A stretch of DNA of 44,545 nucleotides from a virus (lineage: Duplodnaviria; Heunggongvirae; Uroviricota; Caudoviricetes), in IMG/VR virus record IMGVR_UViG_2737471829_000005. One strand, given 5' to 3'. A program made the translations under genes and the position numbers. A model generated the notes under the pieces. That model was not told the origin of the DNA. It searched no databases and saw only the letters and a program-made list of their open reading frames with translations. The stretch's first letter is position 1; every line of letters starts with the position of its first letter. Positions 9,697 to 44,545 of the stretch are shown here, in pieces.

Positions 9697-9769
9697 ACCT
9701 CGGTTTACAGGAAACGGTAAATCAGGCTTCTGGTGCGTTGCAGAAAAACCAGAATGGCGCAGATATTCC
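9697..9769. repeat. Left inverted repeat of the invertible segment; contains the crossover site
   Basis: 73 bp, reverse complement identical to 12679-12751. Confidence 0.85.
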
Positions 9770-10658
9770 GGGAAAAGATACCTTCACCAAAAATATTGGG
9801 GCCTGCCGCGCATATAGCGCATGGCTGAATATTGGTGGCGATAGTCAGGTCTGGACAACCGCGCAATTTATTTCGTGGCTGGAGAGTCAGGGAGCATTTA
9901 ACCATCCTTACTGGATGTGCAAAGGCTCATGGGCTTATGCAAATAATAAGGTCATTACAGATACAGGTTGCGGAAATATTTGTCTTGCAGGTGCTGTGGT
10001 GGAAGTTATTGGCACTCGCGGCGCAATGACCATACGCGTTACCACGCCGAGCACGTCCAGCGGTGGCGGAATTACTAACGCTCAATTCACTTATATTAAT
10101 CATGGTGATGCTTATGCTCCTGGCTGGCGACGAGACTACAACACGAAAAATCAACAACCTGCATTTGCTTTAGGGCAAACAGGAAGCACTGTCGGAAATG
10201 ATAAAGCTGTTGGCTGGAACTGGAATAGCGGGGTCTATAACGCAAACATTGGTGGCGCATCGACATTAATCCTCCACTTCAATATGAATGCGGGGAGCTG
10301 CCCTGCTGTACAGTTCCGCGTGAATTACAGGAACGGCGGCATTTTTTATCGTTCAGCGCGTGATGGTTATGGATTTGAGGCTGACTGGTCAGAGTTTTAC
10401 ACCACGACCCGCAAACCCTCTGCGGGAGATGTTGGTGCATACACGCAGGCAGAATGTAACTCAAGGTTTATTACAGGTATTCGCCTTGGCGGTCTGTCAT
10501 CTGTTCAGACATGGAATGGCCCCGGCTGGTCTGACAGGTCAGGTTATGTCGTTACGGGTTCAGTTAACGGAAACCGTGATGAATTAATTGATACAACACA
10601 GGCAAGGCCAATTCAGTATTGCATTAATGGGACGTGGTATAACGCGGGGAGTATTTAA
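9738..10658 (+). CDS. Alternative tail-fibre C-terminal variable segment (Sv'); silent in this orientation
   Basis: Shares the junction peptide ASGALQKNQNGADIP and a similar C-terminus (PIQ.YINGTWYN) with the expressed fibre; no own promoter or start. Confidence 0.75.
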   Translation: MQKNQNGADIPGKDTFTKNIGACRAYSAWLNIGGDSQVWTTAQFISWLESQGAFNHPYWMCKGSWAYANNKVITDTGCGNICLAGAVVEVIGTRGAMTIRVTTPSTSSGGGITNAQFTYINHGDAYAPGWRRDYNTKNQQPAFALGQTGSTVGNDKAVGWNWNSGVYNANIGGASTLILHFNMNAGSCPAVQFRVNYRNGGIFYRSARDGYGFEADWSEFYTTTRKPSAGDVGAYTQAECNSRFITGIRLGGLSSVQTWNGPGWSDRSGYVVTGSVNGNRDELIDTTQARPIQYCINGTWYNAGSI

Positions 10659-10660
10659 CG

Positions 10661-11194
10661 ATGATGCACTTAAAAAACATTACTGCTGGCAACCCTAAAA
10701 CAAAAGAGCAATACCAGCTAACAAAGCAATTTAACATCAAATGGCTTTATTCAGATGATGGAAAAAACTGGTATGAGGAACAAAAGAATTTCCAGCCAGA
10801 CACTTTGAAAATGGTCTATGACCATAACGGCGTTATTATTTGTATTGAAAAGGATGTTTCAGCAATTAATCCGGAAGGCGCAAGCGTCGTTGAATTACCT
10901 GATATTACAGCAAATCGCCGGGCTGATATTTCGGGGAAATGGTTGTTCAAAGATGGCGTAGTGATAAAGCGAACTTATACCGAGGAAGAGCAGAGGCAAC
11001 AAGCGGAAAATGAAAAGCAAAGCCTGCTACAGCTCGTCAGGGATAAAACCCAGCTATGGGACTCACAGCTACGGCTGGGTATCATTTCCAACGAGAATAA
11101 ACAAAAATTAACCGAGTGGATGCTCTATGCGCAGAAGGTCGAATCCACAGACACCTCCAGCCTGCCAGTAACGTTTCCAGAACAACCAGAATGA
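10661..11194 (+). CDS. Tail-fibre assembly chaperone (U'), alternative copy
   Basis: 177 aa; paralogue of 11223-11750. Confidence 0.8.
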   Translation: MMHLKNITAGNPKTKEQYQLTKQFNIKWLYSDDGKNWYEEQKNFQPDTLKMVYDHNGVIICIEKDVSAINPEGASVVELPDITANRRADISGKWLFKDGVVIKRTYTEEEQRQQAENEKQSLLQLVRDKTQLWDSQLRLGIISNENKQKLTEWMLYAQKVESTDTSSLPVTFPEQPE

Positions 11195-11197
11195 AAC

Positions 11198-11226
11198 AAG
11201 GCCCGCTATCGGGCCTTAATTTTTAT
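11198..11226. terminator. Bidirectional terminator between the convergent chaperone genes
   Basis: aaggcccg-ctat-cgggcctt followed by a T-rich run. Confidence 0.55.
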
Positions 11227-11750
11227 TCAGGCTTTTGTGGCCATTCAGGATTTGCCGTATCCACACGGCTGACCAGAACGCTGTAGCGTTCCCATGCTTC
11301 CAGTCGTGTGCGTTCCTCGTCTGTTGCCATATTCAGCCTGACAGCGCGTTCCAGCGGCTGGATGACTGATTCAGCTTCGGAAATCAACGCGGCCTTTTGT
11401 GATTCGGCCTGTTGTTGCTGTTCGTCAGCCGTATAAATCCGCTTAATCACAGCACCATCCTTAAACATCCATTTACCTGAGTCATCAGCACGTCGGTTGG
11501 CGGTAATATCAGGAACCTCGACAACGCTAAAACCTTCAGGGTTAAGCGTGGAGGCATCTTTGGTGATGGCGGCAATAATATTATTTTCGTCGTATACAAT
11601 CTTTATGGTGTCGTCCTGAAAGTTATTTACTTCCTCATACCAGTTTTTACCGTCTTCTGTATATAACCAGATAACATCAAAATTCTTTGTTAGCTGATAT
11701 TGCTCTTTTGTTTTTGGATTTCCTGACTTAATATTTTTTAAATGCTGCAT
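11223..11750 (-). CDS. Tail-fibre assembly chaperone (U), expressed copy
   Basis: 175 aa; paralogue of U'; directly downstream of the tail-fibre gene. Confidence 0.8.
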
Positions 11751-11753
11751 AAT

Positions 11754-14108
11754 TTACACCTGTGCGACGTTATACCATGTGCCATTGATGTATTTTTGTA
11801 TTGGTCTGAAGATGGCTTCATCATCGCCATCTACTTCACCAATGATTCTTAATCCGGTAATTGCGTGTCCGGCTTTTTCATAACGACCACCACGCGCCAT
11901 CAATTGAACAACACGCGTACCCAGGCGAACATCTTTCACATAACGGGAATCAAAGTTACCGTAATCCGAGGGGTTAACACGCCCTGTAATATTTATGGTT
12001 TTATTACTTTGAATGCTGCCGGAGACAAAGCGCATAACATGGACGTTATTAGCATAAACGTCCAGATTACCGTCGCCATTTTGTTTAAAGCCCGTGTCAT
12101 TATCACCCAAAACAATCGAGTTACCGCCAAGAGCACTGGATGTTCCGATGCCCAGTGCACCATTCAATTGACCTCCAGATAATGACAACGCCCCAACATC
12201 AGCAGCAGTCGGTTTAATGTGCGAACTGTAAATTACATATACAGTTCCATCTGTCAGGCCTTTTGGTTTATTCGCTGTATAAGTTGGTGATGTATGAATC
12301 GTTACGCTGGCGTTACTGGTATAATCCCACTGAATATTAACACCTGTGGCGTAATTACCTATTTCAACATAAACATCATAGGTATCACCGGATGTATTCA
12401 CCCATGCAAAATTAGTAAATCCAACCGATGTCCGTCGCCATAACGCACCAGTAAGACCTTTTGGATTTCCATTTCCCGCACGAAGAACAAGTTCAGATAT
12501 ACCAGCCTGCATAGGGGAGTTAACATTATATCCAGCACCACCAATCAGGCTTATGTAAACCACGGAACTGGCCTGGGGCATGGTTACAGTTGCCAGCCTG
12601 AACCATCCTGTACCACCACTAAAAGACATGGTTGTTGAATTTGTTGCTCCAATATTGCGCAGGAATAATCTTTTATCAGGAATATCTGCGCCATTCTGGT
12701 TTTTCTGCAACGCACCAGAAGCCTGATTTACCGTTTCCTGTAAACCGAGGTATTCGATAACGGCGGCAACGGTCGATTTCGCAAGAATATCCCGCCCGAC
12801 TTTTGTCAGAGTTGCCAGGCTGGCGACATCATTCCCCGTAAAATACGGAAACCTGTCTGCCGCAGTAGCAAGCCCGGCCAGCGCCGTCAGGGTGGCATCT
12901 TTCGGTTGCTTACCCGCAAGCGCGTTAGTCATGGTGGTCGCAAAATTCGGGTCGTTGCCCAACGCCGCAGCCAGCTCGTTCAGCGTATTTAGTGCGTCAG
13001 GCGACGAGTCCACGAGGGCAGCGATCGCAGCCATAACATAAGCCGTGCTTGCGATCTGAGTATTGTTAGTACCTTTTGGCGCAGTTGGTGTTGTTGGTGT
13101 TCCGGTCAGCGCAGGACTGTTTAAGGGCGCTTTCTTGTTCGTTTCATCCATTACCGCCTTAACAGCTTTTGGTGTCGCAGCCAGCGTTTCAGACGTGCTG
13201 TTAGTGGCACTACTGAGCTGAGTTATTCCCCTTACAGTCAGTGAAGCTACAGGCACATTTGTTATCTGCTCCCACGAATGCGTGTGATTGGACGGAGCCT
13301 TTCCGGCCGCAAGATCATACGCTGCCTTAACAGCCTTTGGTGTTGCTGCTAGCGTTTCAGACGTGCTGTTGGTGGCACTACTGAGCTGAACAATCCCTTT
13401 TCGCGCTGTGGTAGCGTCCTGTGCGGTGTATTTAGCGTTAGCAAGGTCATATGCTGCCTTAACAGCCTTAGGCGTCGCAGCAAGCGTTTCAGACGCGCTA
13501 TTGGTGGCGCTGCTAAGTTGAACAAAGCCTTTTGAGGTTAAAGTTGCATCAGGATGATTACGTGATTGCTCATGTTTCACAATGGCTTGCTTAAGCCGCT
13601 TTGCTGAAACAGCAAGGGAATCATCTGTACCTGCCTCAATTTCTTGTTCATTAGCAAATCTTGCCACCCCAACAACAGTTTCGGTCGCGGGAGGATTAAT
13701 AAACTCAATATCACCAAATGTAATATTTTTAGTATCAAGAGTCTTAATTGCTATATCACTTGATATTAAAGCGATAGTAGATGATGCTTTATTTATTATT
13801 GCTTGTTCTTGTGAGTATACAGCAAACAACGCCCCCTTATTCGTATACAATCCTATTGTATGGACAACATACTCATCTTTACTATCATCCTTCGCTGTTA
13901 CATGAATTGTATCAGGGGAAACAACTTTGCCACCTATTGTGGTAAGTCGTTTTATTTCGTTTGTTATATTTGTTTGTGAGGTTGACGTGACATAATATCT
14001 ACTACCTAAACCAACAGAAACAATCTCAACTTTATTTGTTCCTGTTTTGTTGGCATTAACCAGCTCCTGACGCCCGGCGTCAGTCATCGTAAATAATAAT
14101 TTACTCAC
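11754..14108 (-). CDS. Tail fibre protein (S); constant N-terminal part outside, variable C-terminal part inside the invertible segment
   Basis: 784 aa; repeat-rich; crossover repeat lies inside the ORF at 12679-12751. Confidence 0.85.
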   Translation of the reverse strand: MSKLLFTMTDAGRQELVNANKTGTNKVEIVSVGLGSRYYVTSTSQTNITNEIKRLTTIGGKVVSPDTIHVTAKDDSKDEYVVHTIGLYTNKGALFAVYSQEQAIINKASSTIALISSDIAIKTLDTKNITFGDIEFINPPATETVVGVARFANEQEIEAGTDDSLAVSAKRLKQAIVKHEQSRNHPDATLTSKGFVQLSSATNSASETLAATPKAVKAAYDLANAKYTAQDATTARKGIVQLSSATNSTSETLAATPKAVKAAYDLAAGKAPSNHTHSWEQITNVPVASLTVRGITQLSSATNSTSETLAATPKAVKAVMDETNKKAPLNSPALTGTPTTPTAPKGTNNTQIASTAYVMAAIAALVDSSPDALNTLNELAAALGNDPNFATTMTNALAGKQPKDATLTALAGLATAADRFPYFTGNDVASLATLTKVGRDILAKSTVAAVIEYLGLQETVNQASGALQKNQNGADIPDKRLFLRNIGATNSTTMSFSGGTGWFRLATVTMPQASSVVYISLIGGAGYNVNSPMQAGISELVLRAGNGNPKGLTGALWRRTSVGFTNFAWVNTSGDTYDVYVEIGNYATGVNIQWDYTSNASVTIHTSPTYTANKPKGLTDGTVYVIYSSHIKPTAADVGALSLSGGQLNGALGIGTSSALGGNSIVLGDNDTGFKQNGDGNLDVYANNVHVMRFVSGSIQSNKTINITGRVNPSDYGNFDSRYVKDVRLGTRVVQLMARGGRYEKAGHAITGLRIIGEVDGDDEAIFRPIQKYINGTWYNVAQV
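12679..12751. repeat. Right inverted repeat of the invertible segment, inside the tail-fibre ORF
   Basis: Reverse complement identical to 9697-9769. Confidence 0.85.
13156..13527 (-). repeat. Three tandem coding repeats (about 70 nt conserved cores) inside the tail-fibre gene
   Basis: Encode the repeated peptide SSATNS.SETLAATPKAVKA. Confidence 0.7.
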
Positions 14109-29524: not shown

Positions 29525-31381
29525 CTATATGGTTACGCCTTTACTTATAACTCTACGGCGTCTTCTACGTATACCTGACGAGTTCTGCACATACACATTA
29601 CCTCGCATTTCCTGTTCGGCAAGCCAGTTAAAATTAGGGTTCAGAATTTCCATCGCGGCAGTTGCATAGTTACGGCAATCAAGAGGCTCGTTACGCTCGT
29701 AGACTTTCACCCACTTTTCTTTTGTCTGCCCATTTTTATATTCAAATATTTTTTTCTCTGATAATAGTCCTTTAAAGTATTCAGTATCATATCCTCTGTC
29801 AGAATCTAATGGGAAATGCATATAACCAGGACCAGGATCATGTAGTTTAATTCTTGCCATGATGGTCCCTTTACCATCATCAACCCCCAAATTAAACAAC
29901 ATAGCACCCACACGGTTATTATTACTTGGCTTTCCTATAAATGGTAAACCTACCCCACCACGCCCCCTGATAGAGTATATTCGCCTTGATTCTCTCGGCT
30001 TAGTAAAACGATATACCTCTGTCGTAAAATGCCCACCAGAGTCAATACAAACAGAAGAAATCTGTAATTTTCGACCGTCACGGAATGACCAGCTACGGAG
30101 TAAGTATTCATCAAGTTGTTTCCAGACAACATCTTGTGCGGGATCACCTGGGAATATTTTATATTCTATCCCCCATGACTCCTTACCTTTTCCCCAACCG
30201 ACCAATTCACAAACTAAATACGTGTCCTGTACGTCAACACCAGCACTTAACAATAAAACATCATCTGGTAAAAACTCTTCAAACCTTATTCTGCGTTGCA
30301 ACAAGTATTCAGGATCGATATCGTCTTTAGCATCCTCTTTCCATGGCTCACCCAGCTTAAGGTTAATAAACTCCATTAATCCATTTTTATCGCGGTTTCT
30401 GGTTGCTTCCGTAAATTCTTCAACCAGCTCTGACAATGCAACCCACGGGGAGTAAAGACTGTTAATATGAAAACCAACAATACCTTTAACTCCAGTATGT
30501 TCAGCTATCCATACCCCCTTTGCCAACCAATCAACGTCTGGTTTACCAGATCCGCGCATAATCCCGCCGCACTCACAGCACTCATATCTGGCCGTTTCCG
30601 GTAACGCCTCACCTGAATCGCTCTTATCCCATCTGACTTGCGACCATTTCATCACCTGCATGGTGCCACAACATGGACAAGGAACATGGTAGTAACGCTG
30701 ATCGGAGAGCTTAAACCACTTGTGGATTTTGCTCGTTTCCTCCAAAACAGGAGTAGAAACAAAAACTTTCTTACGATTATGAAAGTTGGTAGTACGCTGA
30801 ATACCTAGTTTTAGTGGGTCGCCCTCCTGCGTCACACCATAACGATCAATCTCATCAGCTAACAGTATTCGAATTGGCCTGGATGCAAGACCTGCTGGGG
30901 AATTAGCACCAACAAGTGCTATATATCCACCAGCGTAATGCTTCATACGTATAGTCGTGCTGGACTTTTTGGCTGCACCGCGCCCCTCTTTCCCTTCATG
31001 CAGCTTGTGTTTCAAACCAGGGGAATATTTGAACGTCGGATCAATACGCTCCTTTGAAAAAGCCTCAGCCGCCTCTACCGTTGGATAAATCATCAACTGA
31101 GGAGATGGCTCCTGATCTGCAAAGTAACCCATAACATTTAGCTGTAATTCGGATTTACCAATTTGCGAGCTACATTGCATCACTACTGTTTCTGTATCAG
31201 CGTCACCAATAACATCCATTGGTTCACGCAAATATGGCACTCGGCTTGTACGCCACGGCCCTGGCTCTGGAGACGTTCCCGGCGCTACATGACGATACTT
31301 ATCAGCCCATTCGGAAACAGTTAGCCGTGATTTAGGGCGAAGCGCACGGAAAAAAGCGGTGCTCCATACTGTTTCGCCCAT
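29525..31381 (-). CDS. Terminase large subunit (lambda gpA-like)
   Basis: 618 aa; Cys-cluster region CPCCGT...CCECG and ATPase/nuclease architecture. Confidence 0.9.
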   Translation of the reverse strand: MGETVWSTAFFRALRPKSRLTVSEWADKYRHVAPGTSPEPGPWRTSRVPYLREPMDVIGDADTETVVMQCSSQIGKSELQLNVMGYFADQEPSPQLMIYPTVEAAEAFSKERIDPTFKYSPGLKHKLHEGKEGRGAAKKSSTTIRMKHYAGGYIALVGANSPAGLASRPIRILLADEIDRYGVTQEGDPLKLGIQRTTNFHNRKKVFVSTPVLEETSKIHKWFKLSDQRYYHVPCPCCGTMQVMKWSQVRWDKSDSGEALPETARYECCECGGIMRGSGKPDVDWLAKGVWIAEHTGVKGIVGFHINSLYSPWVALSELVEEFTEATRNRDKNGLMEFINLKLGEPWKEDAKDDIDPEYLLQRRIRFEEFLPDDVLLLSAGVDVQDTYLVCELVGWGKGKESWGIEYKIFPGDPAQDVVWKQLDEYLLRSWSFRDGRKLQISSVCIDSGGHFTTEVYRFTKPRESRRIYSIRGRGGVGLPFIGKPSNNNRVGAMLFNLGVDDGKGTIMARIKLHDPGPGYMHFPLDSDRGYDTEYFKGLLSEKKIFEYKNGQTKEKWVKVYERNEPLDCRNYATAAMEILNPNFNWLAEQEMRGNVYVQNSSGIRRRRRRVISKGVTI

Positions 31382-31386
31382 GAGGT

Positions 31387-31947
31387 TTATTCTTCCTGCT
31401 TAATAAATCGGGATTCCTGGAGCGCCTGGAGCGCAAAATTAATCTCGTCTTCAATAATGCGTTCGATCTCCCTAGCTGTTTTGCCTTCACAACGGGGAGC
31501 TGCTCTTGGAGCAATACTAAATAAGCGGCTACGCAATTCATTAGCTGCCAGAAATGCATCATCCCTGACCGCATCTTTAGCGATGAGAGAGCCTTCCTTT
31601 TCTTCAAATTCAAGGCGTTTCAGCTTTGCCTGATAAATTTTTTCTGCGGTCTTAGCCTTGTTGAATTGCACCGCAACACCGGAAGTACCACCAGCTAATC
31701 CGGCATCATCAGCGGGTAACTCTGGTTGTTCCGAAGATATCCCATGCCCTCTTTTTCCGTTTTCAGCAGATACCTCACGACCAACCTGTCGGCTCGCTTC
31801 ATAAGCCGCACTTGCTTTATCAAAATCCAGCTTGCCGCTTTTCAGCACTGGAATGCGACCGGAACGACAGAGCTTCGTAACCATTGCCGGAGAAATACCT
31901 TTCCGGCGGGCAAACTCTGACTTACTGACGATGGCCATTACTTGCAA
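31387..31947 (-). CDS. Terminase small subunit (Nu1-like, N-terminal HTH)
   Basis: 186 aa; N-terminal HTH SKSEFARRKGISPAMVTKL; immediately upstream of TerL. Confidence 0.75.
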   Translation of the reverse strand: MQVMAIVSKSEFARRKGISPAMVTKLCRSGRIPVLKSGKLDFDKASAAYEASRQVGREVSAENGKRGHGISSEQPELPADDAGLAGGTSGVAVQFNKAKTAEKIYQAKLKRLEFEEKEGSLIAKDAVRDDAFLAANELRSRLFSIAPRAAPRCEGKTAREIERIIEDEINFALQALQESRFIKQEE

Positions 31948-32528
31948 CCATTAGCAAGATACTGAACAAATCCCTCATGCGTTTCATGCGCGTCGTGGTA
32001 CTGACGATAAACATCCAGCAACAATGCAATTTCCATATCCGTCGCGGGAATACGTTCTTTATCAATAGCCAGGTACTTAATTTGAACAACAGGGGAAGAA
32101 TTATCGTCTTCTTCCTGCGGCTGTTCATCGCTTAACATTTCGTCAAGCTCTGCATCATTAAACCCAAGCAGATCAATATCAAAATCATCATCCATTAACT
32201 CTTTGACTTCTTCGGCCAGAAGCTGCATATCCCAGCCAGCATTTAAGGCCAGCTTGTTATCTGCAATCCTGTAAGCCTTCTTCTGTTTTTCAGAAAGGTT
32301 ACTCAACCGAATCGCCGGAACTTTATCCATTTCAAGAATTTCGGCTGCTGCAAGCCGACCATGCCCCGCAATCAGTTCATTCTTTTCATCGATCAGCACA
32401 GGATTAGTGAAACCGAACTCACGGATACTGTTCACCAACTGTTCAACCTGCTCATCTGAATGAGTCCGTGAATTTTTGGCGTATCTGAGCAGCTTACCGA
32501 CTGGTAAATATTCGATTTTTAGAGCCAT
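31938..32528 (-). CDS. ParB/Srx-like N-terminal domain protein (paralogue of 35195-35818)
   Basis: 196 aa; GHGR motif AGHGRLAAA; full-length paralogy with the third ParB-like protein. Confidence 0.75.
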   Translation of the reverse strand: MALKIEYLPVGKLLRYAKNSRTHSDEQVEQLVNSIREFGFTNPVLIDEKNELIAGHGRLAAAEILEMDKVPAIRLSNLSEKQKKAYRIADNKLALNAGWDMQLLAEEVKELMDDDFDIDLLGFNDAELDEMLSDEQPQEEDDNSSPVVQIKYLAIDKERIPATDMEIALLLDVYRQYHDAHETHEGFVQYLANGCK

Positions 32529-33085
32529 TTTTTAACCGCCATAACACAACAGGTTAAAGAAAACTGTTTAACTTATTGATACTAAAAGAGAAAAATGACG
32601 ATCTTTTTACTCATAAAAAATCACACAAACCAGCATAATCATCTGATTTTATTAAGTTTTTATAAGTGAAAAGGATCTTGAGATGGTGTTTTGGTTAAAA
32701 GATTGGATGTATTTGCATGATTTATAACGATTTTTATCAGAACAACATCACATTGGTTAAAGATCTGCGCGTATCTTGATGATCTAAAAGAAAATTCTCT
32801 ACTTTCTTTTCACCATCACAAGCACAGCAAAAAATCACGTTTTCCCAATATTTTTCAATGAGATGGGTAAATTTCTTTTACCGCAACTTTTAACCTAACT
32901 TTTTTCACGTTTAGCTAGCCGAATATCGGGGTTCGAATGACCCGCATCCAACGCTTTTGGCCAGAAGGACCCAATTCTGCCGGACGATGAAACGATGCTC
33001 GTGCTCCCCCACAGACAGCCAGCGAGCGACGCTACAGAACACAGTGAATACACCCTGCATAACAACACCATCAACCACACGATGA
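32529..33085. other. AT-rich ORF-free intergenic region with four GATC sites upstream of the packaging genes; candidate late promoter or packaging-site region
   Basis: No credible ORF; GATC at 32600, 32674, 32762 and 32781. Confidence 0.3.
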
Positions 33086-33805
33086 TTAACGAGAGAACGT
33101 CTTAGAAAGGATGTCATCAATAGCCTTTGTGACTTCATCAGCAAACGCATCCTCACCAGCACGCAGCGCCACGCCATGCCAATCAAGACGCTGCGAATAG
33201 TTAGGTTGCTGGATGAACGTAAGGATCAACGTAGGACGCCGCCCAACGCGCTGCCAGACGCCTGGTTGAAGCGGGTTACTTGTACCAGGTCGAACAACAA
33301 AAAACTCCGTAGGCTTGCCCTGACGGCGATTTTGATGCGCATCTCGCTGAACTCTTAGGCCAGATAAGACCTGCTGTAATTGCCCCCGCGAAATATTCCC
33401 GTATTTGTCCAGCTTTGCGCCGGGACCAGGAGCAAGCTGCCAGCCGTTAGGCAAATATCCACCAGCCCTTAGCGCCCCTTCTGAGCGTTTGTACTGTCGT
33501 TGGCCACCTTCGATTTGCGGAGTCAACGTTACAGGGGCTGGCGTTCCTCCCCATTCACGAGCATACACAATGGCTGTAGGATCACTCTTCTTTGCGGCCA
33601 AAACGTAAGTAGAGTTCTGAATCCACGGCGTGGGCCTGTCAAATACCCGATTAATTTCATTCTTAATCGCAGCCTGAGAAGCCTTTGCCGTTCTGGTTGC
33701 CGCAAGCGCCATTGCGAACGGCAATTCGCGTTCTTCAAGGCGCTGGAGTTGTCGTTGAATATCCTGAGAAGAAAAATCCATCTTTATCTCAATTCTGTCA
33801 GCCAC
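33086..33805 (-). CDS. Hypothetical protein (239 aa)
   Basis: Long ORF downstream of the ParB-methyltransferase fusion. Confidence 0.55.
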   Translation of the reverse strand: MADRIEIKMDFSSQDIQRQLQRLEERELPFAMALAATRTAKASQAAIKNEINRVFDRPTPWIQNSTYVLAAKKSDPTAIVYAREWGGTPAPVTLTPQIEGGQRQYKRSEGALRAGGYLPNGWQLAPGPGAKLDKYGNISRGQLQQVLSGLRVQRDAHQNRRQGKPTEFFVVRPGTSNPLQPGVWQRVGRRPTLILTFIQQPNYSQRLDWHGVALRAGEDAFADEVTKAIDDILSKTFSR

Positions 33806-33821
33806 CAGCGCCTCCTACACA

Positions 33822-35201
33822 CTACTTAATCAACGGCCGGAAAGCCGCCAGCACATCATCAGATCGTCCGATTGTTGAACCACCAGGCAACGGCAACTCA
33901 AACTCAAAACGAACAGCTTTCTCCAGACTCGCCCAACTAAGGGAATCATCGTTAATGACGTGCAAATACCAGCTCTTACAGTTGAATATTGACCGCTTAA
34001 TCCTGAAACCATGTACACAACACAACTGCTTCACTTCATCATCAGAGTGAAACTTCTGGTAAAACCAGTGCCCCTTCCGGTACAACGCGGTAAAACCGTT
34101 ATGATCAATAAAATAAAGCCGGCTTTTGGAACTCGCCGCTTGTGTTTGCTTCAGGACTGTTTCCAGCTCTCCACGGCTACGACCAGAAAAGAATATTGAC
34201 CCACCAGCTTTACACAGGCCTTTCAGAACCGTCAGAACGGACCATTCAGCCTCAACACTATCGACCGAGTTCAAAACGCTATCGCAAATCACGTAGTCGT
34301 AACGCCCTCGCGTTTTTAAGTCGTCCACCAGCGTATCAATCATCCGGTTTGTTGCGGTCCTATCCAGAGTGTTTCCAGCGCCCTTACGGCGGAAAAGCTC
34401 GAGATCATGCAGGTTATATCCCTTTGCCCTGAGCATTCGCGCGTAGTCTCCCTGCCCCGAACCAAAATCAATTCCTCTTGGAGTCTTGGCAATGATCGGG
34501 AGGATCAACGACTCATACAGGTTTGATTTCAGGCTGCCACCATTACGCAACCGCATAAGCTGCGCATACGTCTGGATGTATGTTGTTTTCTCCAGATGAG
34601 AATACTCAAATACACCATAAGTTTTATTCAGATAACTTTGGTATTTTTCCTTCTCAACATCAGGGATCACAAACACCGTTAGCGGTGTGCGCGTCATCTT
34701 CGCTGCTAATGCATACTGAGCACAGTGAATAACCTCGCCAGACTGAGTAGCAACACAACCACCCCACGGACCATACTTGATAACCAGTTCCGCTATGTTC
34801 TTTCGAACATATGCCATTTTCGCGCGCATATTGCCTGAGATCTGGCTTGCCGATACCTGAACAAAACCATGCTTATCTTCCAGACCGGACACCCTGCAAC
34901 GCTCATCTCCGCTATCAAAATCCGTTCCGTTATGCAGTTGGTTAAACCGTACTTCGTCGTATACCGTCGTTTCACAGGGCAACACATACACCGCAGCACG
35001 CGTTATTCCCAACTTACGTAGCGCCTTCGTCCTTTGGTGTCCCGCCACCAGCAAATCGCCGCGCACTATCAATGGCTTCACAAGCCCTAGCTCCCTGACG
35101 CTTTCCGCCAGCCTCGCAAGATCATCCTCACCGATAAAACGCGGGTTATATTCCGCACCGCGTAGGTGCGTTATGTCGTAATTGAGGTGAAGCATCAGCA
35201 C
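33822..35201 (-). CDS. Fusion protein: N-terminal ParB/Srx-like domain plus C-terminal class I SAM-dependent methyltransferase
   Basis: 459 aa; N-terminal GHQRTKA; C-terminal IDFGSGQG and YDYVICDSVL Rossmann motifs; no DPPY-type amino-methyltransferase motif seen. Confidence 0.7.
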   Translation of the reverse strand: MLMLHLNYDITHLRGAEYNPRFIGEDDLARLAESVRELGLVKPLIVRGDLLVAGHQRTKALRKLGITRAAVYVLPCETTVYDEVRFNQLHNGTDFDSGDERCRVSGLEDKHGFVQVSASQISGNMRAKMAYVRKNIAELVIKYGPWGGCVATQSGEVIHCAQYALAAKMTRTPLTVFVIPDVEKEKYQSYLNKTYGVFEYSHLEKTTYIQTYAQLMRLRNGGSLKSNLYESLILPIIAKTPRGIDFGSGQGDYARMLRAKGYNLHDLELFRRKGAGNTLDRTATNRMIDTLVDDLKTRGRYDYVICDSVLNSVDSVEAEWSVLTVLKGLCKAGGSIFFSGRSRGELETVLKQTQAASSKSRLYFIDHNGFTALYRKGHWFYQKFHSDDEVKQLCCVHGFRIKRSIFNCKSWYLHVINDDSLSWASLEKAVRFEFELPLPGGSTIGRSDDVLAAFRPLIK

Positions 35202-35818
35202 ACCTCCCCAGCCAGCAATGCGGATACAAATCCGATATAGCTGCCATTATCATCAACATAACGAGACACCGCGCAGTCAAAACGATCCGCTTCCTCATCC
35301 GTTGCCGGGATTTTATGACCTCCAAATGACAGGTACTGAACTTTTACGCCTGATTTGGCCTCATCCTTCTCAAATGGGATATCCATACCCTCTGTGTCAT
35401 CGTAGACCGCCGCACTCAATAAGTTATCCAGTTCGCGCTGAGTAAAACCAATTGAGTCCAGAGCAAAATCATCGGCCGCAAGATCTGCAAGCTCCGCGCT
35501 TAACAACTCTTCATCCCAACCAGCATTCAGCGGAATACGGTTGTCGGCCAGACGATATGCCTTCTTCTGATTCTCCGTTAGCCCTTCCAGAACAATGCAG
35601 GGAACATCATCCATCCCCAACTGAGTGGCCGCAGCAATTCGACCATGACCAGCAATTACAACGTTGTTCTCGTCTATCAGGATCGGATTAGTCCATCCGT
35701 ACTCCTGTATGCTGGCAACAATCTGATCTACCTGCTCCACGGAGTGTGTGCGAGCGTTCTTTTCATAACCAATCAACACAGAAAGTGGTAAAGAAACCAC
35801 ATTAAGATGTTTTGTCAT
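35195..35818 (-). CDS. ParB/Srx-like N-terminal domain protein (paralogue of 31938-32528)
   Basis: 207 aa; AGHGRIAAA; conserved C-terminal IPATDEE block shared with its paralogue. Confidence 0.75.
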   Translation of the reverse strand: MTKHLNVVSLPLSVLIGYEKNARTHSVEQVDQIVASIQEYGWTNPILIDENNVVIAGHGRIAAATQLGMDDVPCIVLEGLTENQKKAYRLADNRIPLNAGWDEELLSAELADLAADDFALDSIGFTQRELDNLLSAAVYDDTEGMDIPFEKDEAKSGVKVQYLSFGGHKIPATDEEADRFDCAVSRYVDDNGSYIGFVSALLAGEVC

Positions 35819-35963
35819 GCCGTTTATCCGCTAAAATCCCCTCGCTTGTGCAAGCAAGTGGGCCTCGGTTTGTATCCACGGCACCCTGTGGGTATGAATG
35901 ACTGTCGTCAGGTCGCAACTGACGGCGGTCGCCCACCTTCCAGTAATAAAAAAGCCACCAGCA

Positions 35964-35989
35964 TTAACTCCACAGCGAGCTGGAGTTAA
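35964..35989. promoter_or_regulatory. 9-bp inverted repeat ttaactcca-N8-tggagttaa upstream of the ParB-like/late gene block
   Basis: Perfect palindrome in the 235-bp intergenic region. Confidence 0.35.
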
Positions 35990-36052
35990 TGAGGCAGCTT
36001 TGGTTTGCGCATTATCGCAGCCCCTGGTAAGCACAAGAGCTGCTGTAATGCT

Positions 36053-36084
36053 AAAAAAACAAAACCACCCGCAGGTGGTTTTAT
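36053..36084. terminator. Bidirectional intrinsic terminator at the end of accessory operon B
   Basis: aaaaccacc-cgca-ggtggtttt. Confidence 0.6.
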
Positions 36085-36110
36085 AAATAAATAGCAAACA
36101 GGTATCTGCA

Positions 36111-36518
36111 CTAATCAGATAAACCAAACTTCTTCTTTGCCAATGACTTGAGAAGTTCTACACCAACATCCTTCATAACAGCCAATGGCTCATTGCTAAT
36201 TTCTTTTAGTCTAGCGAAAACATCTTTGCTCTCTAGTGCACAGGCAAAATCCTGTCCCTCTGTAGTCAATCTAATATCTACATCAACAGTCCTCATTCCT
36301 GCAAAAAAATTAACATAGCCAAGACGCAGAGGATCACGCGTTTCCATCTTCATATTGCTGATAAAACCTTGCTCAATCAATTGCATATAATGAAACATGC
36401 CCTTTTCTGAGGCTATATCAAACCCCGCATCTCTTAGTTGATTTACTGTTATGAACGTGCTTTCTGAATCCAAAAACACAGTCAGCATCTTTTTTAGATA
36501 ATCTAGATCGGTGCGCAT
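36111..36518 (-). CDS. Hypothetical protein (about 135 aa)
   Basis: ATG at 36518 with AAGGAGG RBS. Confidence 0.55.
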   Translation of the reverse strand: MRTDLDYLKKMLTVFLDSESTFITVNQLRDAGFDIASEKGMFHYMQLIEQGFISNMKMETRDPLRLGYVNFFAGMRTVDVDIRLTTEGQDFACALESKDVFARLKEISNEPLAVMKDVGVELLKSLAKKKFGLSD

Positions 36519-36604
36519 TTTACCCTCCTTAAATGGAACGCAAATGTTACACAACCTTTAAAAAAGACACATTGTTTTATTTATGCCTCATTTTAATCGA
36601 CCAA

Positions 36605-36757
36605 TTACTGCCTAAATTTATCAATCAATAATTGCTCCCGCTTACGCCGAAAAGCTCTCTGCGCCACTAAGATGCGCCACAGAACACCAGCGATAACCAC
36701 CAGCGAGATACAAAAACACACGGCCACAACCATCAGAAAAATGCCAACACCATTCAT
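36605..36757 (-). CDS. Small membrane protein (50 aa; MNGVGIFLMVVAVCFCISLVVIAGVLW...)
   Basis: Not in the ORF track (under 60 aa); ATGA overlap with the upstream ORF; single transmembrane segment and basic C-terminus. Confidence 0.4.
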   Translation of the reverse strand: MNGVGIFLMVVAVCFCISLVVIAGVLWRILVAQRAFRRKREQLLIDKFRQ

Positions 36758-36960
36758 GAAACTATCCATTCTTCAATGAATATCTCCAGTAATGTCAAGA
36801 GATACGCCATCCCCAGCGCGGTTCCTACCGATATAGCTAAGACAAACCTCAAAGATAACGAGGTGTCTTTCGCTTTTCTCCAGACGTAAGCGCCAGCCAG
36901 AAATACCAACAAATCTCTTATTGGAAGCGGAAACCAGAACAAATCACTCGGCAAGTCCAC
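36754..36960 (-). CDS. Small membrane protein (68 aa)
   Basis: Two hydrophobic segments; coupled to neighbours. Confidence 0.45.
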   Translation of the reverse strand: MDLPSDLFWFPLPIRDLLVFLAGAYVWRKAKDTSLSLRFVLAISVGTALGMAYLLTLLEIFIEEWIVS

Positions 36961-36962
36961 GG

Positions 36963-37418
36963 TTATATCCTTCCATTCATTTTTATCGGATGACCAGATA
37001 GCCTTACGCAGTTGAGCTGTAAAGCTCCGGTATCAACTAACTGATCAACTAACATGATTAGAGCTTCATATTCAGACTGATAGCTAACCTGACGCATTCG
37101 ACCGCCGTTGTTCTCCAGAATGTCGGCCACCTTTGCAGCCAACTCGCTTAGACAGGAGAACTTATTCCCATATATCGTTTTATACTCGCGCTTCTGGCAT
37201 TCTTCGGCTTGCGGCTGGTTATCGAGAGCTATCAGCGACCGATGGCTATCAAGGAAGTCCACAATCTCATTCAGGCACTCTTTGGCTGCCTCATCGTGAC
37301 TTTTTCCGTATGCTTCATGGAGGACTTTCATCCTCATCATTGCTCCGTCACACATAATCGAAAGCGCGTAAAGCACATCACTAATCGCCATTTCTTTTTT
37401 GGTGCTTGTCGAAGGCAT
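36963..37418 (-). CDS. Hypothetical protein (151 aa)
   Basis: ATG at 37418 with AAGGAGA RBS, just after an internal terminator. Confidence 0.55.
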   Translation of the reverse strand: MPSTSTKKEMAISDVLYALSIMCDGAMMRMKVLHEAYGKSHDEAAKECLNEIVDFLDSHRSLIALDNQPQAEECQKREYKTIYGNKFSCLSELAAKVADILENNGGRMRQVSYQSEYEALIMLVDQLVDTGALQLNCVRLSGHPIKMNGRI

Positions 37419-37443
37419 CCCATGTTCTCCTTTGTCTGGATGT

Positions 37444-37469
37444 AAAAAAGCCCCGGCAATTGCCGAGGC
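37444..37469 (-). terminator. Intrinsic terminator inside operon B, between its first and second genes
   Basis: Minus-sense gcctcggc-aauu-gccggggc (8-bp stem) followed by U6. Confidence 0.6.
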
Positions 37470-37492
37470 TCGTTGTTCGTTATCGTTACGGT

Positions 37493-37714
37493 TTAATGCT
37501 CGCGTCGTCCGGCGACAACTTCGGATTTGTATTTCAGGTCGCCCAGCAAGAATTGCAGCTTAAGCATCTTTGCCGCCGTGTAGTTCCCTGATTCCACAAC
37601 CTCTTTCATGAGGTCATAAACGGCCGCTACATCATCAGCCAGGAACTCTTTGCGTTGCTGATCAGTCGCACGTTTGAAGGAAATACGCATTACTTTACGG
37701 TCTTGTTCTTTCAT
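37493..37714 (-). CDS. Hypothetical small protein (73 aa), first gene behind leader cassette B
   Basis: ATG directly at the conserved leader RBS. Confidence 0.55.
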   Translation of the reverse strand: MKEQDRKVMRISFKRATDQQRKEFLADDVAAVYDLMKEVVESGNYTAAKMLKLQFLLGDLKYKSEVVAGRREH

Positions 37715-37823
37715 CGGGTTATCTCCGGTTTAACCAGGGCGGGTATCGCTCGGTTTCGGGTATAACATTAGGAAATTTTTTCCCACCTGTAAAGTACTTT
37801 TTATATAAATATATAATTCTATG
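37715..37823 (-). repeat. Conserved promoter-leader cassette, copy B
   Basis: More than 90% identical to copies A and C. Confidence 0.8.
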
Positions 37824-38406
37824 ACACTTGCCAGAGAGCATCATGCAACTGGATACCTCCGTTGCACTGGTTGCCCCAGCCATGCCAGCCATCAGGTAAA
37901 TCACCGCGAGCAAACAGCTCAATACGAGGAACATCACCTAACAGTCTTACCAGCTTGTCACGAACCACATCAGGCTTCCGTGAATGTTCCAGACGAGGCG
38001 ATGTAAACGACTGAATGATCCCCGCATCAAGGCGGGTCGGCAGTTTGCCTTTTACCGCAAACAAGCAATCTTCACTGTTCGCACGAGTCATATGCCCCAT
38101 CCCCATCACCAGCTTATCTGGCTGTCGGCTACCACATTTGTTCCATGTGAAGCCCTTCATGGTCATCAGCCTGAACCCCCATGCTTTCACCACCAGCAAC
38201 GCTTCTTCTGGCTGAGTCGGAACCCACCACATGGCCAACAAACACGATTCAGGATTAGCAAGCTGCCAGACAGGAATACGAGCAATCTCCTCAGCTTTCA
38301 TCGTTGGATACTTAAAACCAGCTCCACGATTCCCATCCTTACACTTGTCTTTGTATTCCCAGGGGGGATCTGCATAAATCAGATTAAACAATGCAATTGC
38401 CTCCAT
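37819..38406 (-). CDS. MT-A70 family N6-adenine DNA methyltransferase
   Basis: 195 aa; DPPW catalytic motif near the N-terminus (LIYADPPWEY). Confidence 0.8.
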   Translation of the reverse strand: MEAIALFNLIYADPPWEYKDKCKDGNRGAGFKYPTMKAEEIARIPVWQLANPESCLLAMWWVPTQPEEALLVVKAWGFRLMTMKGFTWNKCGSRQPDKLVMGMGHMTRANSEDCLFAVKGKLPTRLDAGIIQSFTSPRLEHSRKPDVVRDKLVRLLGDVPRIELFARGDLPDGWHGWGNQCNGGIQLHDALWQVS

Positions 38407-38462
38407 GTTAGTTGTGCCTCCGGCGCTTATCTCCGGCAGTCATAACGCTGGCCAGCTCTACA

Positions 38463-38507
38463 GCAAACACAACGAAAAGGGCACTAACCAGACTGATTAA
38501 TGCCCTT
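38463..38507 (-). terminator. Intrinsic terminator about 200 nt downstream of the tRNA
   Basis: Minus-sense aagggcauuaauc-agucu-gguuagugcccuu (13-bp stem, two G-U) followed by a U-rich tract. Confidence 0.5.
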
Positions 38508-38714
38508 GCCTGTTGTGTGCCGGATATCGCCCGACAACGCTGTTTTGGTAACACGGCTACAGTTCCGTGCCGCTCCAGCTTTTACCCCTTTGCGGATAAC
38601 AGGCCCTGCCTGTACTCACTAACCAACGGCTTCCCGAAATGTGCACCAGGCACGCATAAAGATGAGCACGAAGAAGTAACTCCACCGCGCTTATCTTTAT
38701 GTGTGAGGGTGAAT

Positions 38715-38790
38715 TGGTGGCCCCTACCGGATTTGAACCGATGACCGTGCGATTATGAGTCGCCTGCTCTAACCACTAAGCTAAGGGGCC
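38715..38790 (-). tRNA. tRNA with CAU anticodon (Ile2-like or Met elongator; not distinguishable by eye)
   Basis: Reverse complement is GGCCCCTTAGCTTAGTGGTTAGAGCAGGCGACTCATAATCGCACGGTCATCGGTTCAAATCCGGTAGGGGCCACCA: 7-bp acceptor stem, D-arm, CTCATAA anticodon loop, GGTTCAAATCC T-arm, encoded CCA. Confidence 0.85.
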
Positions 38791-38801
38791 ATATTTGATT
38801 T

Positions 38802-38882
38802 GTTTGTCTGGTGTGGCGCCGCGCACGAAAATCCCAGCCAATAAATTCAGGATTTTTGGGCGCGGCGGCATATCAGACAAAC
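38802..38882. repeat. Long imperfect palindrome (33-nt arms, 28/33 matching, 15-nt centre) just upstream of the tRNA
   Basis: gtttgtctggtgtggcgccgcgcacgaaaatcc / ggatttttgggcgcggcggcatatcagacaaac. Confidence 0.6.
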
Positions 38883-38929
38883 ATGGTTGATGCGTGCGCC
38901 CATGAGAAAAGCGCATAGAATGTTGTAAC

Positions 38930-38965
38930 TATATATTTATATAATTATAGAAATATATATTACTT
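38930..38965. promoter_or_regulatory. AT-rich recurrent motif copy; candidate promoter for the tRNA unit
   Basis: ctatatatttatataattatagaaatatatattac. Confidence 0.35.
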
Positions 38966-39169
38966 TCGGCAGTTGATTTCCCATGCCCTGTTATGAGCCA
39001 GAATATCTTTCTTTGTCTGGCGGTCCATAACATCGATATCGTGATCAGTCAGGTAGATGGGCTTTACCCAATCACAGGCGGTATCAACCACCACCGGGAC
39101 GCTTCCATGACTCCCGCAGCTCGCGATCAACATCGTCATCAGCCATATGGTTAACACTCTGCTGTACAT
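38960..39169 (-). CDS. Outer-membrane spanin (Rz1-like lipoprotein)
   Basis: 69 aa; signal peptide with lipobox LIASC; overlaps the 3' end of the Rz-like gene in another frame. Confidence 0.55.
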   Translation of the reverse strand: MYSRVLTIWLMTMLIASCGSHGSVPVVVDTACDWVKPIYLTDHDIDVMDRQTKKDILAHNRAWEINCRK

Positions 39170-39362
39170 TCCCCACCTCTTTTGTCACTTCTATACGCCG
39201 CTCCGCAGTGGCTTTTACGGCGGCTGCATTCTCATTAATGCGCTGCTTTTCAGCTTCATCTTCGGCCTTTTCTCGCCCCTTCATACGACCAAAACCAAAT
39301 GCGCCGAATGCAACCAATATAATGGTGCCGATAAATGACAAAACGGCTTTCAAACCAGTCAT
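39084..39362 (-). CDS. Inner-membrane spanin (Rz-like)
   Basis: 92 aa; N-terminal transmembrane segment then charged coiled region; follows the endolysin gene. Confidence 0.5.
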   Translation of the reverse strand: MTGLKAVLSFIGTIILVAFGAFGFGRMKGREKAEDEAEKQRINENAAAVKATAERRIEVTKEVGNVQQSVNHMADDDVDRELRESWKRPGGG

Positions 39363-39901
39363 ACCACCACTCGCTCTTTCATCCAGCCATAGACAAACGA
39401 CTCATTTGCTTCGCGTTTCTCCGCCAGGTCCAGATAACGGTCGCCCTGCGTACAGTTAAGGGCCGTCAGCATTACCCGTTCGCCGTCTTTTCCCCGATTC
39501 CCAAGATAAGCACGTAATGCCGCAATGGTGCGCGGGCCGATTCGCCCATCCACATCCATATCTGGATACAACTTCCCGCCACGGTTGAAAACATTCAGCC
39601 AACGTTGAAGCATCTTCGTAGCCACAGTCGGCCCCATGTTGACGCCCGTATCGCACATCTCAGCCGCAATATCAGGGGAAAATTGCGCCACCTGGTCAAA
39701 ACGAGGCCCATACCAATAATCACCTTCAAGAATCATCAGAGCCTGTTCTCGCGTCAGATCTCGCATATCGCCACGGTATCCGTGAGCACGGGCAGTATTC
39801 TGAGTGATGCCCCACATTGTTGGGCCTCCCTTGTCGTCAGGGTGATCAACATAACCACCCTCTTTTCCAAGAATGCTGTTAAAAATCTCATCTTTGGTCA
39901 T
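39359..39901 (-). CDS. Endolysin, GH108-type muramidase with C-terminal peptidoglycan-binding domain
   Basis: 180 aa; N-terminal GKEGGYVDHPDDKGGPTMWGIT block characteristic of GH108. Confidence 0.8.
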   Translation of the reverse strand: MTKDEIFNSILGKEGGYVDHPDDKGGPTMWGITQNTARAHGYRGDMRDLTREQALMILEGDYWYGPRFDQVAQFSPDIAAEMCDTGVNMGPTVATKMLQRWLNVFNRGGKLYPDMDVDGRIGPRTIAALRAYLGNRGKDGERVMLTALNCTQGDRYLDLAEKREANESFVYGWMKERVVV

Positions 39902-43375: not shown

Positions 43376-44443
43376 TCAGGCTTTCAATAGCGATTCTTTC
43401 AGATATCGGGCATCAGCCAGGGCATTTGGAGTAATCTTGCGAACCCATGCATTACGGGTTGGACTCCACTTAAAGGCGCGTGATTTAAGCAGCGAACGAA
43501 TGTTTGCCTCTGGTTTGCCAGGGAAATAAAACAGGATGCGGTTATCCTCTGGATCTATCTCCATAGAAAAGTCGTCGTATTCTTCGCGCTGTGCTCCTGT
43601 TACAGACTTGACCGATTCAAGCTCCTTAATACGGCTCTGTAGTCGTTTGATCTCGGCGTTATTGTTGCTCAGTACGTATGAAGGGAATCCGATGCGCCCA
43701 CAGAAATCTCCGGCCAGTAACTCTTTGGCTTCGCTTTCTGTAAACCTGAGATCGATTAATGCAGAAAGCACCTGTAATTGGTCTTTTTTGTATTTGCGAA
43801 TGGCCTTATTTGCGGCCTTCATTTTGACGTGTGACTTCATGCAGCCTTGCAGCTTACGAAGCAACTTAAATAGCGCATCAGGATCATCAGACGAAATTCC
43901 ATTACGACCAACACCTGCGGCTTTGCTCTCGTAGTGTGATGCTTTACTTTCGCATTCAACAAACGCTTTTCTTAATAACGCATCAGCTTTAGACAAACGG
44001 CGGCGATGGCCTTTCGCGCTATAATGGTCAACTAAAATCGGCTGGCCTAACGGGATCACATCCAACAGGTCATGCGCTCGCTTATGCGCTACCGCACCTT
44101 CTTTTCTGGCTTTTTCTGCACGAGCAATATATCGGGCAAGACGCGCGTTCTGGCGTTCCTGATAGGTGTTTACGTAATCATCTCCGCGCTGCTGCTGTTC
44201 AAGCCATGCTTTGCGCAGATCTTCTGTTACGTCCACCAGCTCCGCAGGGATACAACCAGTTTGGGCTTCATAAGAGTAACCATCCTCATAGATACGCCCA
44301 TCATCTTCAACAAAGAAAAAGGTTTCGTGCTCATCGCTTTTGACCATACGACCATTAACATGGCGTAATAGGTAGCCAGTATCAGTGCTTAACAGGCTGT
44401 TAGGGTTGTTGATCCAGTCAGAAATAATTACTTGTTTATTCAT
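43376..44443 (-). CDS. DUF3560-like protein (355 aa), single gene behind leader cassette C
   Basis: LGQPILVDHYSAKGHRRRL and C-terminal FKWSPTRNAWVRK resemble conserved DUF3560 blocks as recalled. Confidence 0.55.
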   Translation of the reverse strand: MNKQVIISDWINNPNSLLSTDTGYLLRHVNGRMVKSDEHETFFFVEDDGRIYEDGYSYEAQTGCIPAELVDVTEDLRKAWLEQQQRGDDYVNTYQERQNARLARYIARAEKARKEGAVAHKRAHDLLDVIPLGQPILVDHYSAKGHRRRLSKADALLRKAFVECESKASHYESKAAGVGRNGISSDDPDALFKLLRKLQGCMKSHVKMKAANKAIRKYKKDQLQVLSALIDLRFTESEAKELLAGDFCGRIGFPSYVLSNNNAEIKRLQSRIKELESVKSVTGAQREEYDDFSMEIDPEDNRILFYFPGKPEANIRSLLKSRAFKWSPTRNAWVRKITPNALADARYLKESLLKA

Positions 44444-44545
44444 CAGATTTCTCCGGTTTAACCAGGGCGGGTATCGCTCGGTTTCGGTTATAACCTTAGG
44501 AAATTTTTTCCCACCTGTAAAGCACTTTTTATATAAATCTATAAT
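44444..44545 (-). repeat. Conserved promoter-leader cassette, copy C; its promoter end is cut by the window end
   Basis: More than 90% identical to copies A and B. Confidence 0.8.

Follow-up and report, generated by a model that had tools for sequence, protein, structure and literature searches.

Three ParB-like proteins are encoded just upstream of the packaging genes in IMG/VR virus record IMGVR_UViG_2737471829_000005 (Caudoviricetes), which raises the question of whether they belong to one system and what such a system would act on. Within the 44,545 nucleotides of this record (the whole stretch analyzed, hereafter the window), four genes on the minus strand, co-directional with the lysis and morphogenesis genes, encode in turn a small ParB-like protein (ParB207), a fusion of a ParB fold to an S-adenosylmethionine (SAM) methyltransferase (MT459), a basic protein (p239) and a second small ParB-like protein (ParB196). 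Directly downstream lie terS and a GpA-type terL. An earlier reading of the sequence (the original prediction) had placed these open reading frames (ORFs) and the packaging genes correctly (Table 1), and had treated the four genes as one cluster that might be a DNA-modification, anti-restriction or packaging-linked nuclease module. We found the region to be a mosaic around the probable cos site of a phage-plasmid, rather than a single system. Comparison of related loci indicated that ParB207 and MT459 are a separable, mobile two-gene late cassette. For this pair DNA modification was the best-supported of the functions proposed, a support that did not extend to the four genes as one system.

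Both domains of the predicted fusion were present in one polypeptide of ~460 amino acids. Its length was revised slightly, as the 459 residues originally given count from an upstream GTG at 35201, and not from the conserved ATG, which overlaps the ParB207 stop codon (TGATG) and has a GGGGAGG Shine-Dalgarno sequence upstream. PHROG 5475 (“unknown function”) covered positions 1-457 of 458 (E 9e-265), and Methyltransf_23 (PF13489) matched residues 233-341 with 30.7 bits (gathering cut-off 27). In the structural model (pLDDT 93.5), the ParB fold at the N terminus is followed by a middle region, then by the Rossmann methyltransferase and last by helices at the C terminus. When compared with the ParB207 family by hhalign, the ParB fold gave a probability of 97.8% (E 1e-12), and its motifs YNPR, AGHQR and FNQLHN (within RFNQLHNGTD) aligned with QPR, AGERR and ENLQR of Spo0J/ParB. 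The phosphate-binding arginine is retained, and the Box II glutamate of CTP hydrolysis is replaced by histidine. The methyltransferase is of the class I Rossmann SAM type, with a DFGSGQGDY motif I and a DSVLNSVD loop. Around 70 residues are invariant in the family, including YNPR, AGHQR, RFNQLHNGTD and the SAM motif I DFGxG; the P-motif GHQRTKA is likewise invariant.

In the model, the middle region (~110-190) has the secondary-structure order of a ParB fold and is possibly a second ParB-like domain. An hhalign comparison of residues 99-200 with ParB profiles was not significant (E 0.012, probability 3.6%), and the domain is kept as tentative only. When the methyltransferase half alone was searched against 1.84 billion representative proteins, only 389 clusters were recovered, nearly all of ~455-490 amino acids and matching at positions 200-460. 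So few clusters, nearly all in fusion format, indicate that this methyltransferase forms a closed family, essentially confined to the fusion.

ParB207 and ParB196 proved to be the paralogues that had been predicted, with 48% identity over their full length (E 1e-61) and GHGR at residues 57 and 55, respectively. The block said to be shared by the two is common to both, but reads IPATDEE only in ParB207 and IPATDME in ParB196. GHGR, like the GHQR of MT459, lines up with GERR of Spo0J/ParB. Against Pfam ParB_N (PF02195, gathering cut-off 26.3 bits), ParB196 scored above threshold (33.7), with ParB207 (24.8) and MT459 (24.3) just under it; the ParB identity of these two is backed by PHROG matches (E 1e-74), hhalign and Foldseek. 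Both small proteins were assigned to phrog_620. An AlphaFold2 model of ParB207 (pLDDT 75) comprised a nucleotide-binding fold (residues 1-95), three acidic helices (103-139), an acidic disordered linker (140-158) and a small C-terminal domain of a beta-hairpin and two helices that contains IPATDEE. No helix-turn-helix (HTH) DNA-binding domain was seen in this model, and the ParB196 sequence has the same layout. Foldseek aligned ~140 residues of the model to Noc, ParB, KorB and PadC, and also to Srx and SerK, with E ~1e-6 for Noc and ParB. The canonical CTP-dependent ParB/Noc/KorB clamps were the best structural matches for residues 1-140, and share the N-terminal fold and Boxes I to III (YNPR for QPR, GHxR for GERR, and an asparagine in Box III). 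The small-ParB family is strongly acidic (median isoelectric point, pI, 4.4), opposite in charge to MT459 (pI 9.1; family median 8.8).

The pairing of the two cassette genes was nearly invariant. Among genomic and viral loci with enough upstream sequence (n = 64), a ParB207-like ORF lay upstream of MT459 in 63, mostly overlapping its start and in nine loci ending ≤750 nt upstream. The two proteins also co-diversify (r = 0.79, Mantel p ≤ 0.001, n = 58). There are at least 716 MT459 homologues of the same ~460-residue length, with identities down to ~45% among the matches listed and hosts that include Enterobacteria, Bradyrhizobium and Hyphomicrobium, among others; clustered at 50% identity the family amounts to ~270-390 clusters and reaches phages of Bacteroides and Brochothrix. 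The terminase large subunit was the first large ORF downstream in ~59/69 loci and came from at least five families (GpA, Terminase_6, Terminase_3, TerL_ATPase/nuclease and others). Bacteroides phage BS-TP3, whose methyltransferase is 36% identical, has the same order of ParB, methyltransferase, terS and terL.

The single module of the original prediction did not survive comparison with close relatives. Those with a p239 83-85% identical to that of the window show the order lysis genes, 183-residue ORF, p239, gap, ParB196, terS and terL, without ParB207 or MT459, and their cos, terS and terL are near-identical to those of the window. One four-gene system was therefore rejected: these relatives (L092-L097 and L099) keep p239, cos, ParB196 and terS in the absence of the cassette, p239 follows GpA-type terminases (see below), and a gap holding the probable cos site divides the genes.

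Published work bears on each half of the pair. Fusions of PF02195 to PF13489 were reported to be enriched in phages and prophages, with function unknown and “perhaps anti-defense” (Kaljevic et al., 2025; PMC12704722). The supplement of that paper describes an “Mtase23” protein with the P-motif GHQRTKA that binds ATP rather than CTP; it corresponds to the gBlock 174 series. Its R-to-A construct was 41% identical to MT459 residues 11-96 (E 1e-18), with YNPR, AGHQ(A)TKA and RFNQVHNG present, so a relative of MT459 binds ATP through its ParB fold. Another construct, “bactMethyltransferase23” (gBlock 108), was considered as the ATP-binder and set aside as a more distant relative with the motif GHQRHHV. 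MT459 has the architecture, PHROG family and P-motif of the reported fusions. In the portions of the paper available to us, the architecture is listed without a function, and the upstream small ParB, the possible second ParB-like domain and the terminase position are not described.

For the small ParB, the closest precedent is phage ParB176, which is required for the thymine dioxygenase 5mYOX176 to act on double-stranded DNA, with specificity for the cognate pair (O’Toole et al., 2026; PMC13229309). ParB176 is described as having a nucleotide-binding domain that is followed by a short helix-helix segment, then a disordered linker and finally a C-terminal domain, with no DNA-binding domain, and by this description the layout of ParB207 and ParB196 matches. 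The same authors report ParBs and terminases among the commonest neighbors of such enzymes, and here too the ParB gene is conserved beside the enzyme gene, often near a terminase. The partners differ: that of ParB176 is an iron/2-oxoglutarate dioxygenase, whereas that of ParB207 is a SAM methyltransferase with a ParB fold of its own.

A further likeness is to ParB-N6_N4 fusions (PHROG 498; PADLOC MTase_II, PDLC03229), such as Bce_0392, a “ParB-methylase”. The N-terminal ~150 residues of these DNA methyltransferases are homologous to ParB207 and ParB196 (MTase_II E 1e-38 to 1e-40; PHROG 498 E 1e-51), and the homology spans the acidic helical segment (E range 1e-38 to 1e-52). In the small ParBs, a C-terminal domain of ~45 residues stands in place of the methyltransferase domain. 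PADLOC matched only the N-terminal ParB part of the MTase_II model and made no defense-system assignment. The methyltransferase of MT459 belongs to a different clade, one that lacks DPPY.

The case for DNA modification has three parts: the two genes are conserved as a pair, the small ParBs are homologous to the module that ParB-fused DNA methyltransferases carry at their N terminus, and a phage DNA dioxygenase is already known to be activated by a ParB. We tentatively propose that ParB207 and MT459 are a ParB-assisted, nucleoside triphosphate-gated methyltransferase acting on phage DNA before packaging, a reading to which we give slightly less than an even chance. The ParB fold of MT459 would bind a nucleotide, probably ATP, and ParB207 would contact MT459 as its cognate activator or clamp partner. 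Together they would let the methyltransferase work on double-stranded phage DNA late in infection, just before packaging. The product would be a methyl mark unlike the N6-methyladenine (m6A) or N4-methylcytosine (m4C) of DPPY-type enzymes, for protection or epigenetic marking, and an anti-restriction role is plausible. More broadly, the pair is best read as acting on nucleic acid, with DNA the likeliest substrate. A stronger form of the proposal appears unlikely to us: here the pair would be a two-protein, ATP-gated, ParB-clamp-assisted DNA methyltransferase of a new class, placing a mark other than m6A, m4C or 5-methylcytosine in temperate phages from Proteobacteria to Bacteroidota, and ParB196 would, as a corollary, play the same helper role for the terminase small subunit.

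Several observations weigh against a DNA-modifying pair. Srx and SerK show that ParB/Srx folds are not confined to enzymes acting on DNA, and since ParB207 is strongly acidic and has no DNA-binding domain, its engagement with DNA is not evident. The phage already encodes an MT-A70 adenine methylase, present as predicted. Close relatives do without the cassette, cultured phages seldom carry it (7/50,697 records), and its position near the terminase genes could reflect an insertion hot spot for accessory genes. The absence of DPPY/NPPY noted in the original prediction was borne out, with no [DNS]PP[YFWH] motif anywhere in MT459, the loop there reading DSVLNSVD. MT459 also contained no PF01555 or C5-methyltransferase motifs, and no profile or structural similarity between it and DNA methyltransferases was found.

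A methyltransferase domain that lacks known DNA-methyltransferase features makes an RNA, small-molecule or protein substrate a serious rival, if in our judgement a somewhat unlikely one. MT459 would then methylate RNA (tRNA, for example), a protein, or a small molecule or signal derived from a nucleotide. Its ParB/Srx half would serve as an ATP-dependent kinase or sensor, like the folds of Srx and SerK, and the cassette would be a host-takeover or anti-defense module in an accessory hot spot between the lysis and packaging genes. Consistent with this, the nearest structures to the methyltransferase are all small-molecule or tRNA methyltransferases, the Box II glutamate has become histidine (GHQR), a replacement shared with Srx/SerK-type transferases that were recovered in the structural and profile searches, the characterized relative binds ATP and not CTP, and the cassette sits in a variable accessory stretch that is missing from close relatives. 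Yet the partner small ParB is a homologue of the module at the N terminus of genuine DNA methyltransferases, the only published partner of such a small ParB is a DNA-modifying enzyme, MT459 is basic, and a site directly upstream of terS and terL held across phyla is tighter than would be expected of a generic accessory gene.

ParB-fold proteins are increasingly seen as general nucleotide-gated helpers beyond chromosome segregation, and the sole tested phage example so far is the ParB that activates a DNA dioxygenase. If the proposed role of ParB207 and MT459 is right, their cassette would be a second and far more widespread case, with a different enzyme. Should MT459 act on DNA, it would represent a new DNA-methyltransferase class, possibly with a new phage DNA mark for restriction evasion; should its substrate be something else, ParB folds in phages would regulate chemistry on molecules other than DNA. 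PHROG 5475 already catalogs the fusion architecture as an uncharacterized family, and the window proteins are, by sequence comparison, near-identical to annotated proteins of public plasmids and phages. In the literature consulted, we found no description of the small ParB as an obligatory partner, of the methyltransferase as a closed family, of the terminase adjacency across phyla or of the composite arrangement at cos.

The adjacency to terminase genes raises a further possibility, that the ParB-like proteins are nucleases or NTPases which work with terminase at cos or pac in nicking, end processing or site choice, and that the methyltransferase marks or regulates the packaging site; the HNH proteins of HK97-like phages offer a positional analogy. 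Most cassettes do lie directly upstream of terS and terL, and nicking-nuclease activity has been reported for ParB-type domains joined to methylases (PMC5512222). However, the terminases found with the cassette belong to at least five unrelated families, so no specific terminase partnership is evident, and relatives with near-identical cos, terS and terL lack it, so it is not required for packaging. The small ParBs are moreover acidic and without a DNA-binding domain, and our literature search turned up no functional link between ParB-like proteins and terminase or cos. The variety of terminases and the dispensability in close relatives make a packaging-accessory role unlikely for the cassette, and as an account of the locus we regard it as quite improbable.

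For ParB196 the packaging-linked nuclease of the original prediction, disfavored for the cassette, may yet apply. The stop codon of ParB196 overlaps the start of terS (TAATG), a translational coupling, and ParB196 stays with terS in all close relatives, including those without the cassette. Its only conserved partner is terS, and it may have a packaging-linked (nuclease) role. It may be a small ParB that goes with the terminase, or what is left of a cassette that was otherwise lost. Elsewhere, other small ParBs adjoin different enzymes upstream of terminase genes, which suggests that “ParB plus variable enzyme” is a general cassette type. In Lactobacillus phage c5 (L172, 90-1713), a small ParB gene overlaps a putative DNA glucosyltransferase gene directly after the annotated cos, and in Escherichia phage vB_EcoS-673R7 (L171, 2989-4705) another overlaps the gene for an uncharacterized 310-residue protein. 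In a Cylindrospermopsis phage, a ParB-like gene abuts terL, an arrangement that would also fit a packaging accessory.

The non-coding gap between p239 and ParB196 holds a probable cos site. Two GenBank records, those of Yersinia phages vB_YpM_44 and vB_YpM_41, have their ends within the gap, offset from each other by exactly 12 nt (GGTCATTCGAAC). In an alignment of the gap from the window and five relatives, with a mean overall identity of 56%, this 12-mer (with its flanks, 32920-32950) sits inside CGGGTCATTCGAACCCCG, the most conserved island; the strongest invariant island is GGGTCATTCG-ACCCC, which is partly two-fold-symmetric. The AT-rich region beside ParB196 (365 nt) contains 5 of the window’s 14 copies of GGTTAAA, with ~0.07 expected for the interval, and these repeats are candidate cosB or terS-binding sites. 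The 12-nt offset, the conserved island, the repeats and the GpA-type terminase together give the look of cosN plus cosB. If cos is placed correctly, ParB196 would be the first gene of virion DNA, and ParB207, MT459 and p239 the last three. A Serratia relative has many GTTAAC-type repeats at the equivalent place.

The p239 family is very basic (median pI 10.5), and its occurrence does not depend on the ParB genes. Searches of Pfam, NCBIfam and PADLOC returned no match for p239, nor did a search of PDB with a 30-sequence profile. Across loci L089-L168 a GpA-type terL started ≤3 kb downstream of p239 in 60/66 viral loci, usually at 0.5-0.8 kb, so that p239 could also be counted in favor of a packaging function. 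In Pseudomonas phage MD8, no annotated gene lies between p239 and the right end of the record, and matches also lie at the record end in several related Pseudomonas phages (F10, JBD68 and others). Its genomic distribution ties this basic protein to terminase/cos units of the lambda-like GpA type, in which its gene comes last before cos. The PHROG 1924 label “minor tail protein” looks wrong, as the position outside the tail gene block does not fit, and an analogy with HK97 gp74 was dropped for want of an HNH-like motif.

We then weighed whether the three ParB-like proteins could be ordinary partition ParBs that serve the phage-plasmid lifestyle through parS-like repeats. The element occurs as a circular plasmid prophage, with 79/82 of its matches in complete E. 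coli genomes lying on plasmids, the GGTTAAA repeats cluster beside ParB196, and some database annotations call these products partitioning proteins. The scores against TIGR00180 (curated cut-off 58.45 bits) were well below threshold, however, at 31.0 bits for ParB207, 16.4 for MT459 and 40.1 for ParB196. Canonical ParABS ParB has an HTH, an adjacent ParA and the catalytic glutamate; here the HTH is absent and the glutamate is histidine. The element’s only ParA (window 43-696), with an 82-residue gene beside it, lies 31 kb away, and no parA was found next to any of the three genes, whose neighbors are the methyltransferase, p239 and terS. The same genes also occur in integrated prophages and beside terminases in many non-plasmid phages, and the repeats are placed where cosB is expected. 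The ordinary partition family that the original prediction had set against its own proposal was thus not what we found: judged by these sequence criteria, none of the three is the plasmid’s partition ParB, and the partition reading is effectively refuted, with next to no probability left to it. Automatic annotation as “partitioning protein”, “nuclease” or “minor tail protein” is unsupported for these genes.

Table 1. Features of the ParB-like gene region, in window coordinates
Feature	Coordinates	Strand	Details
terL, GpA-type	29525-31381		directly after terS; GpA domains E 1e-76 and 1e-85 (ATPase, nuclease)
terS	31387-31938	-	PHROG 57; coupled to ParB196
ParB196	31938-32528	-	paralogue of ParB207; pI 4.5
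Non-coding gap	32529-33085		557 nt, between p239 and ParB196; contains probable cos site
AT-rich region	32531-32895		between cosN and ParB196; GGTTAAA repeats
Probable cosN	32931-32942		GGTCATTCGAAC read on minus strand; 12-nt offset of phage record ends
p239	33086-33805	-	239 aa; pI 10.1; phrog_1924
MT459	33822-35195	-	457 aa from conserved ATG at 35195
ParB207	35195-35818	-	acidic small ParB; pI 4.3
Intrinsic-terminator-like hairpin, strong	36059-36084	-	11 pairs plus T-run; ~240 nt upstream of ParB207
MT-A70 adenine methyltransferase, stand-alone	37819-38406	-	E 2.4e-23; DPPW at residue 13

The window belongs to a myovirus-type phage-plasmid of 48-50 kb. Region 31387-36000 was 99.2-99.7% identical to E. 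coli circular plasmids of 48-52 kb, and the element was matched in 74/5,426 complete E. coli genomes. One of these plasmids, a 48-kb plasmid prophage, belongs to the standard strain E. coli ATCC 25922 (NZ_CP009073), which makes the cassette readily accessible to experiment. Its record carries a myovirus-type virion module (sheath, tube, baseplate), a lambda-like head and packaging module, RepA, ParA, a toxin-antitoxin pair and a lysis cassette, a combination that identifies the element as a phage-plasmid. The Yersinia pestis phages vB_YpM_39, 41 and 44 were 99.3-99.4% identical over the same region. A pseudolysogeny paper on vB_YpM_HQ103 was set aside, as it concerns an unrelated 32-kb phage.

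MT-A70 lies in the accessory stretch between the lysis genes and the ParB207-MT459 cassette, and no MT-A70 gene was found within 5 kb upstream of p239 in relatives that have ParB196 without the cassette. The strong hairpin at 36059-36084 marks the upstream edge of the cassette transcription unit. The 240-nt spacer ahead of ParB207 contains another hairpin at ~35950-36000, TTAACTCCA...TGGAGTTAA, with a T-run after it. A sigma-70 promoter scan gave no more hits than chance and none in the intergenic region upstream of ParB207, and an Rfam scan of 31000-39500 returned only a tRNA. This tRNA gene (38718-38790, minus strand, 65.8 bits) is situated between the lysis genes and MT-A70; the E. coli plasmid record labels it tRNA-Ile and the Yersinia phage records tRNA-Met, suggesting a CAU anticodon.

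A repeat of ~115 nt was present in three copies of the same orientation (5635-5746, 37711-37822 and 44431-44545), 92-96% identical. On the minus strand each has a promoter-like TTTACA-N17-TAATGT, a conserved leader and the end GGAGATAACCCG-ATG; at 37714, this terminal ATG is the start of a 73-residue ORF. From this layout, the repeat looks like a reiterated promoter/leader unit. In the close, cassette-free relative L092, an ORF (1157-1636) upstream of the holin genes matched Pertussis_S1, the A subunit of an ADP-ribosylating toxin (E 8e-8), and is possibly toxin cargo in the same accessory region. Finally, the tail-fiber and tail-fiber-assembly segments at ~9700-12750 matched reference plasmids in both orientations and adjoin a recombinase/invertase gene, consistent with an invertible host-range segment.

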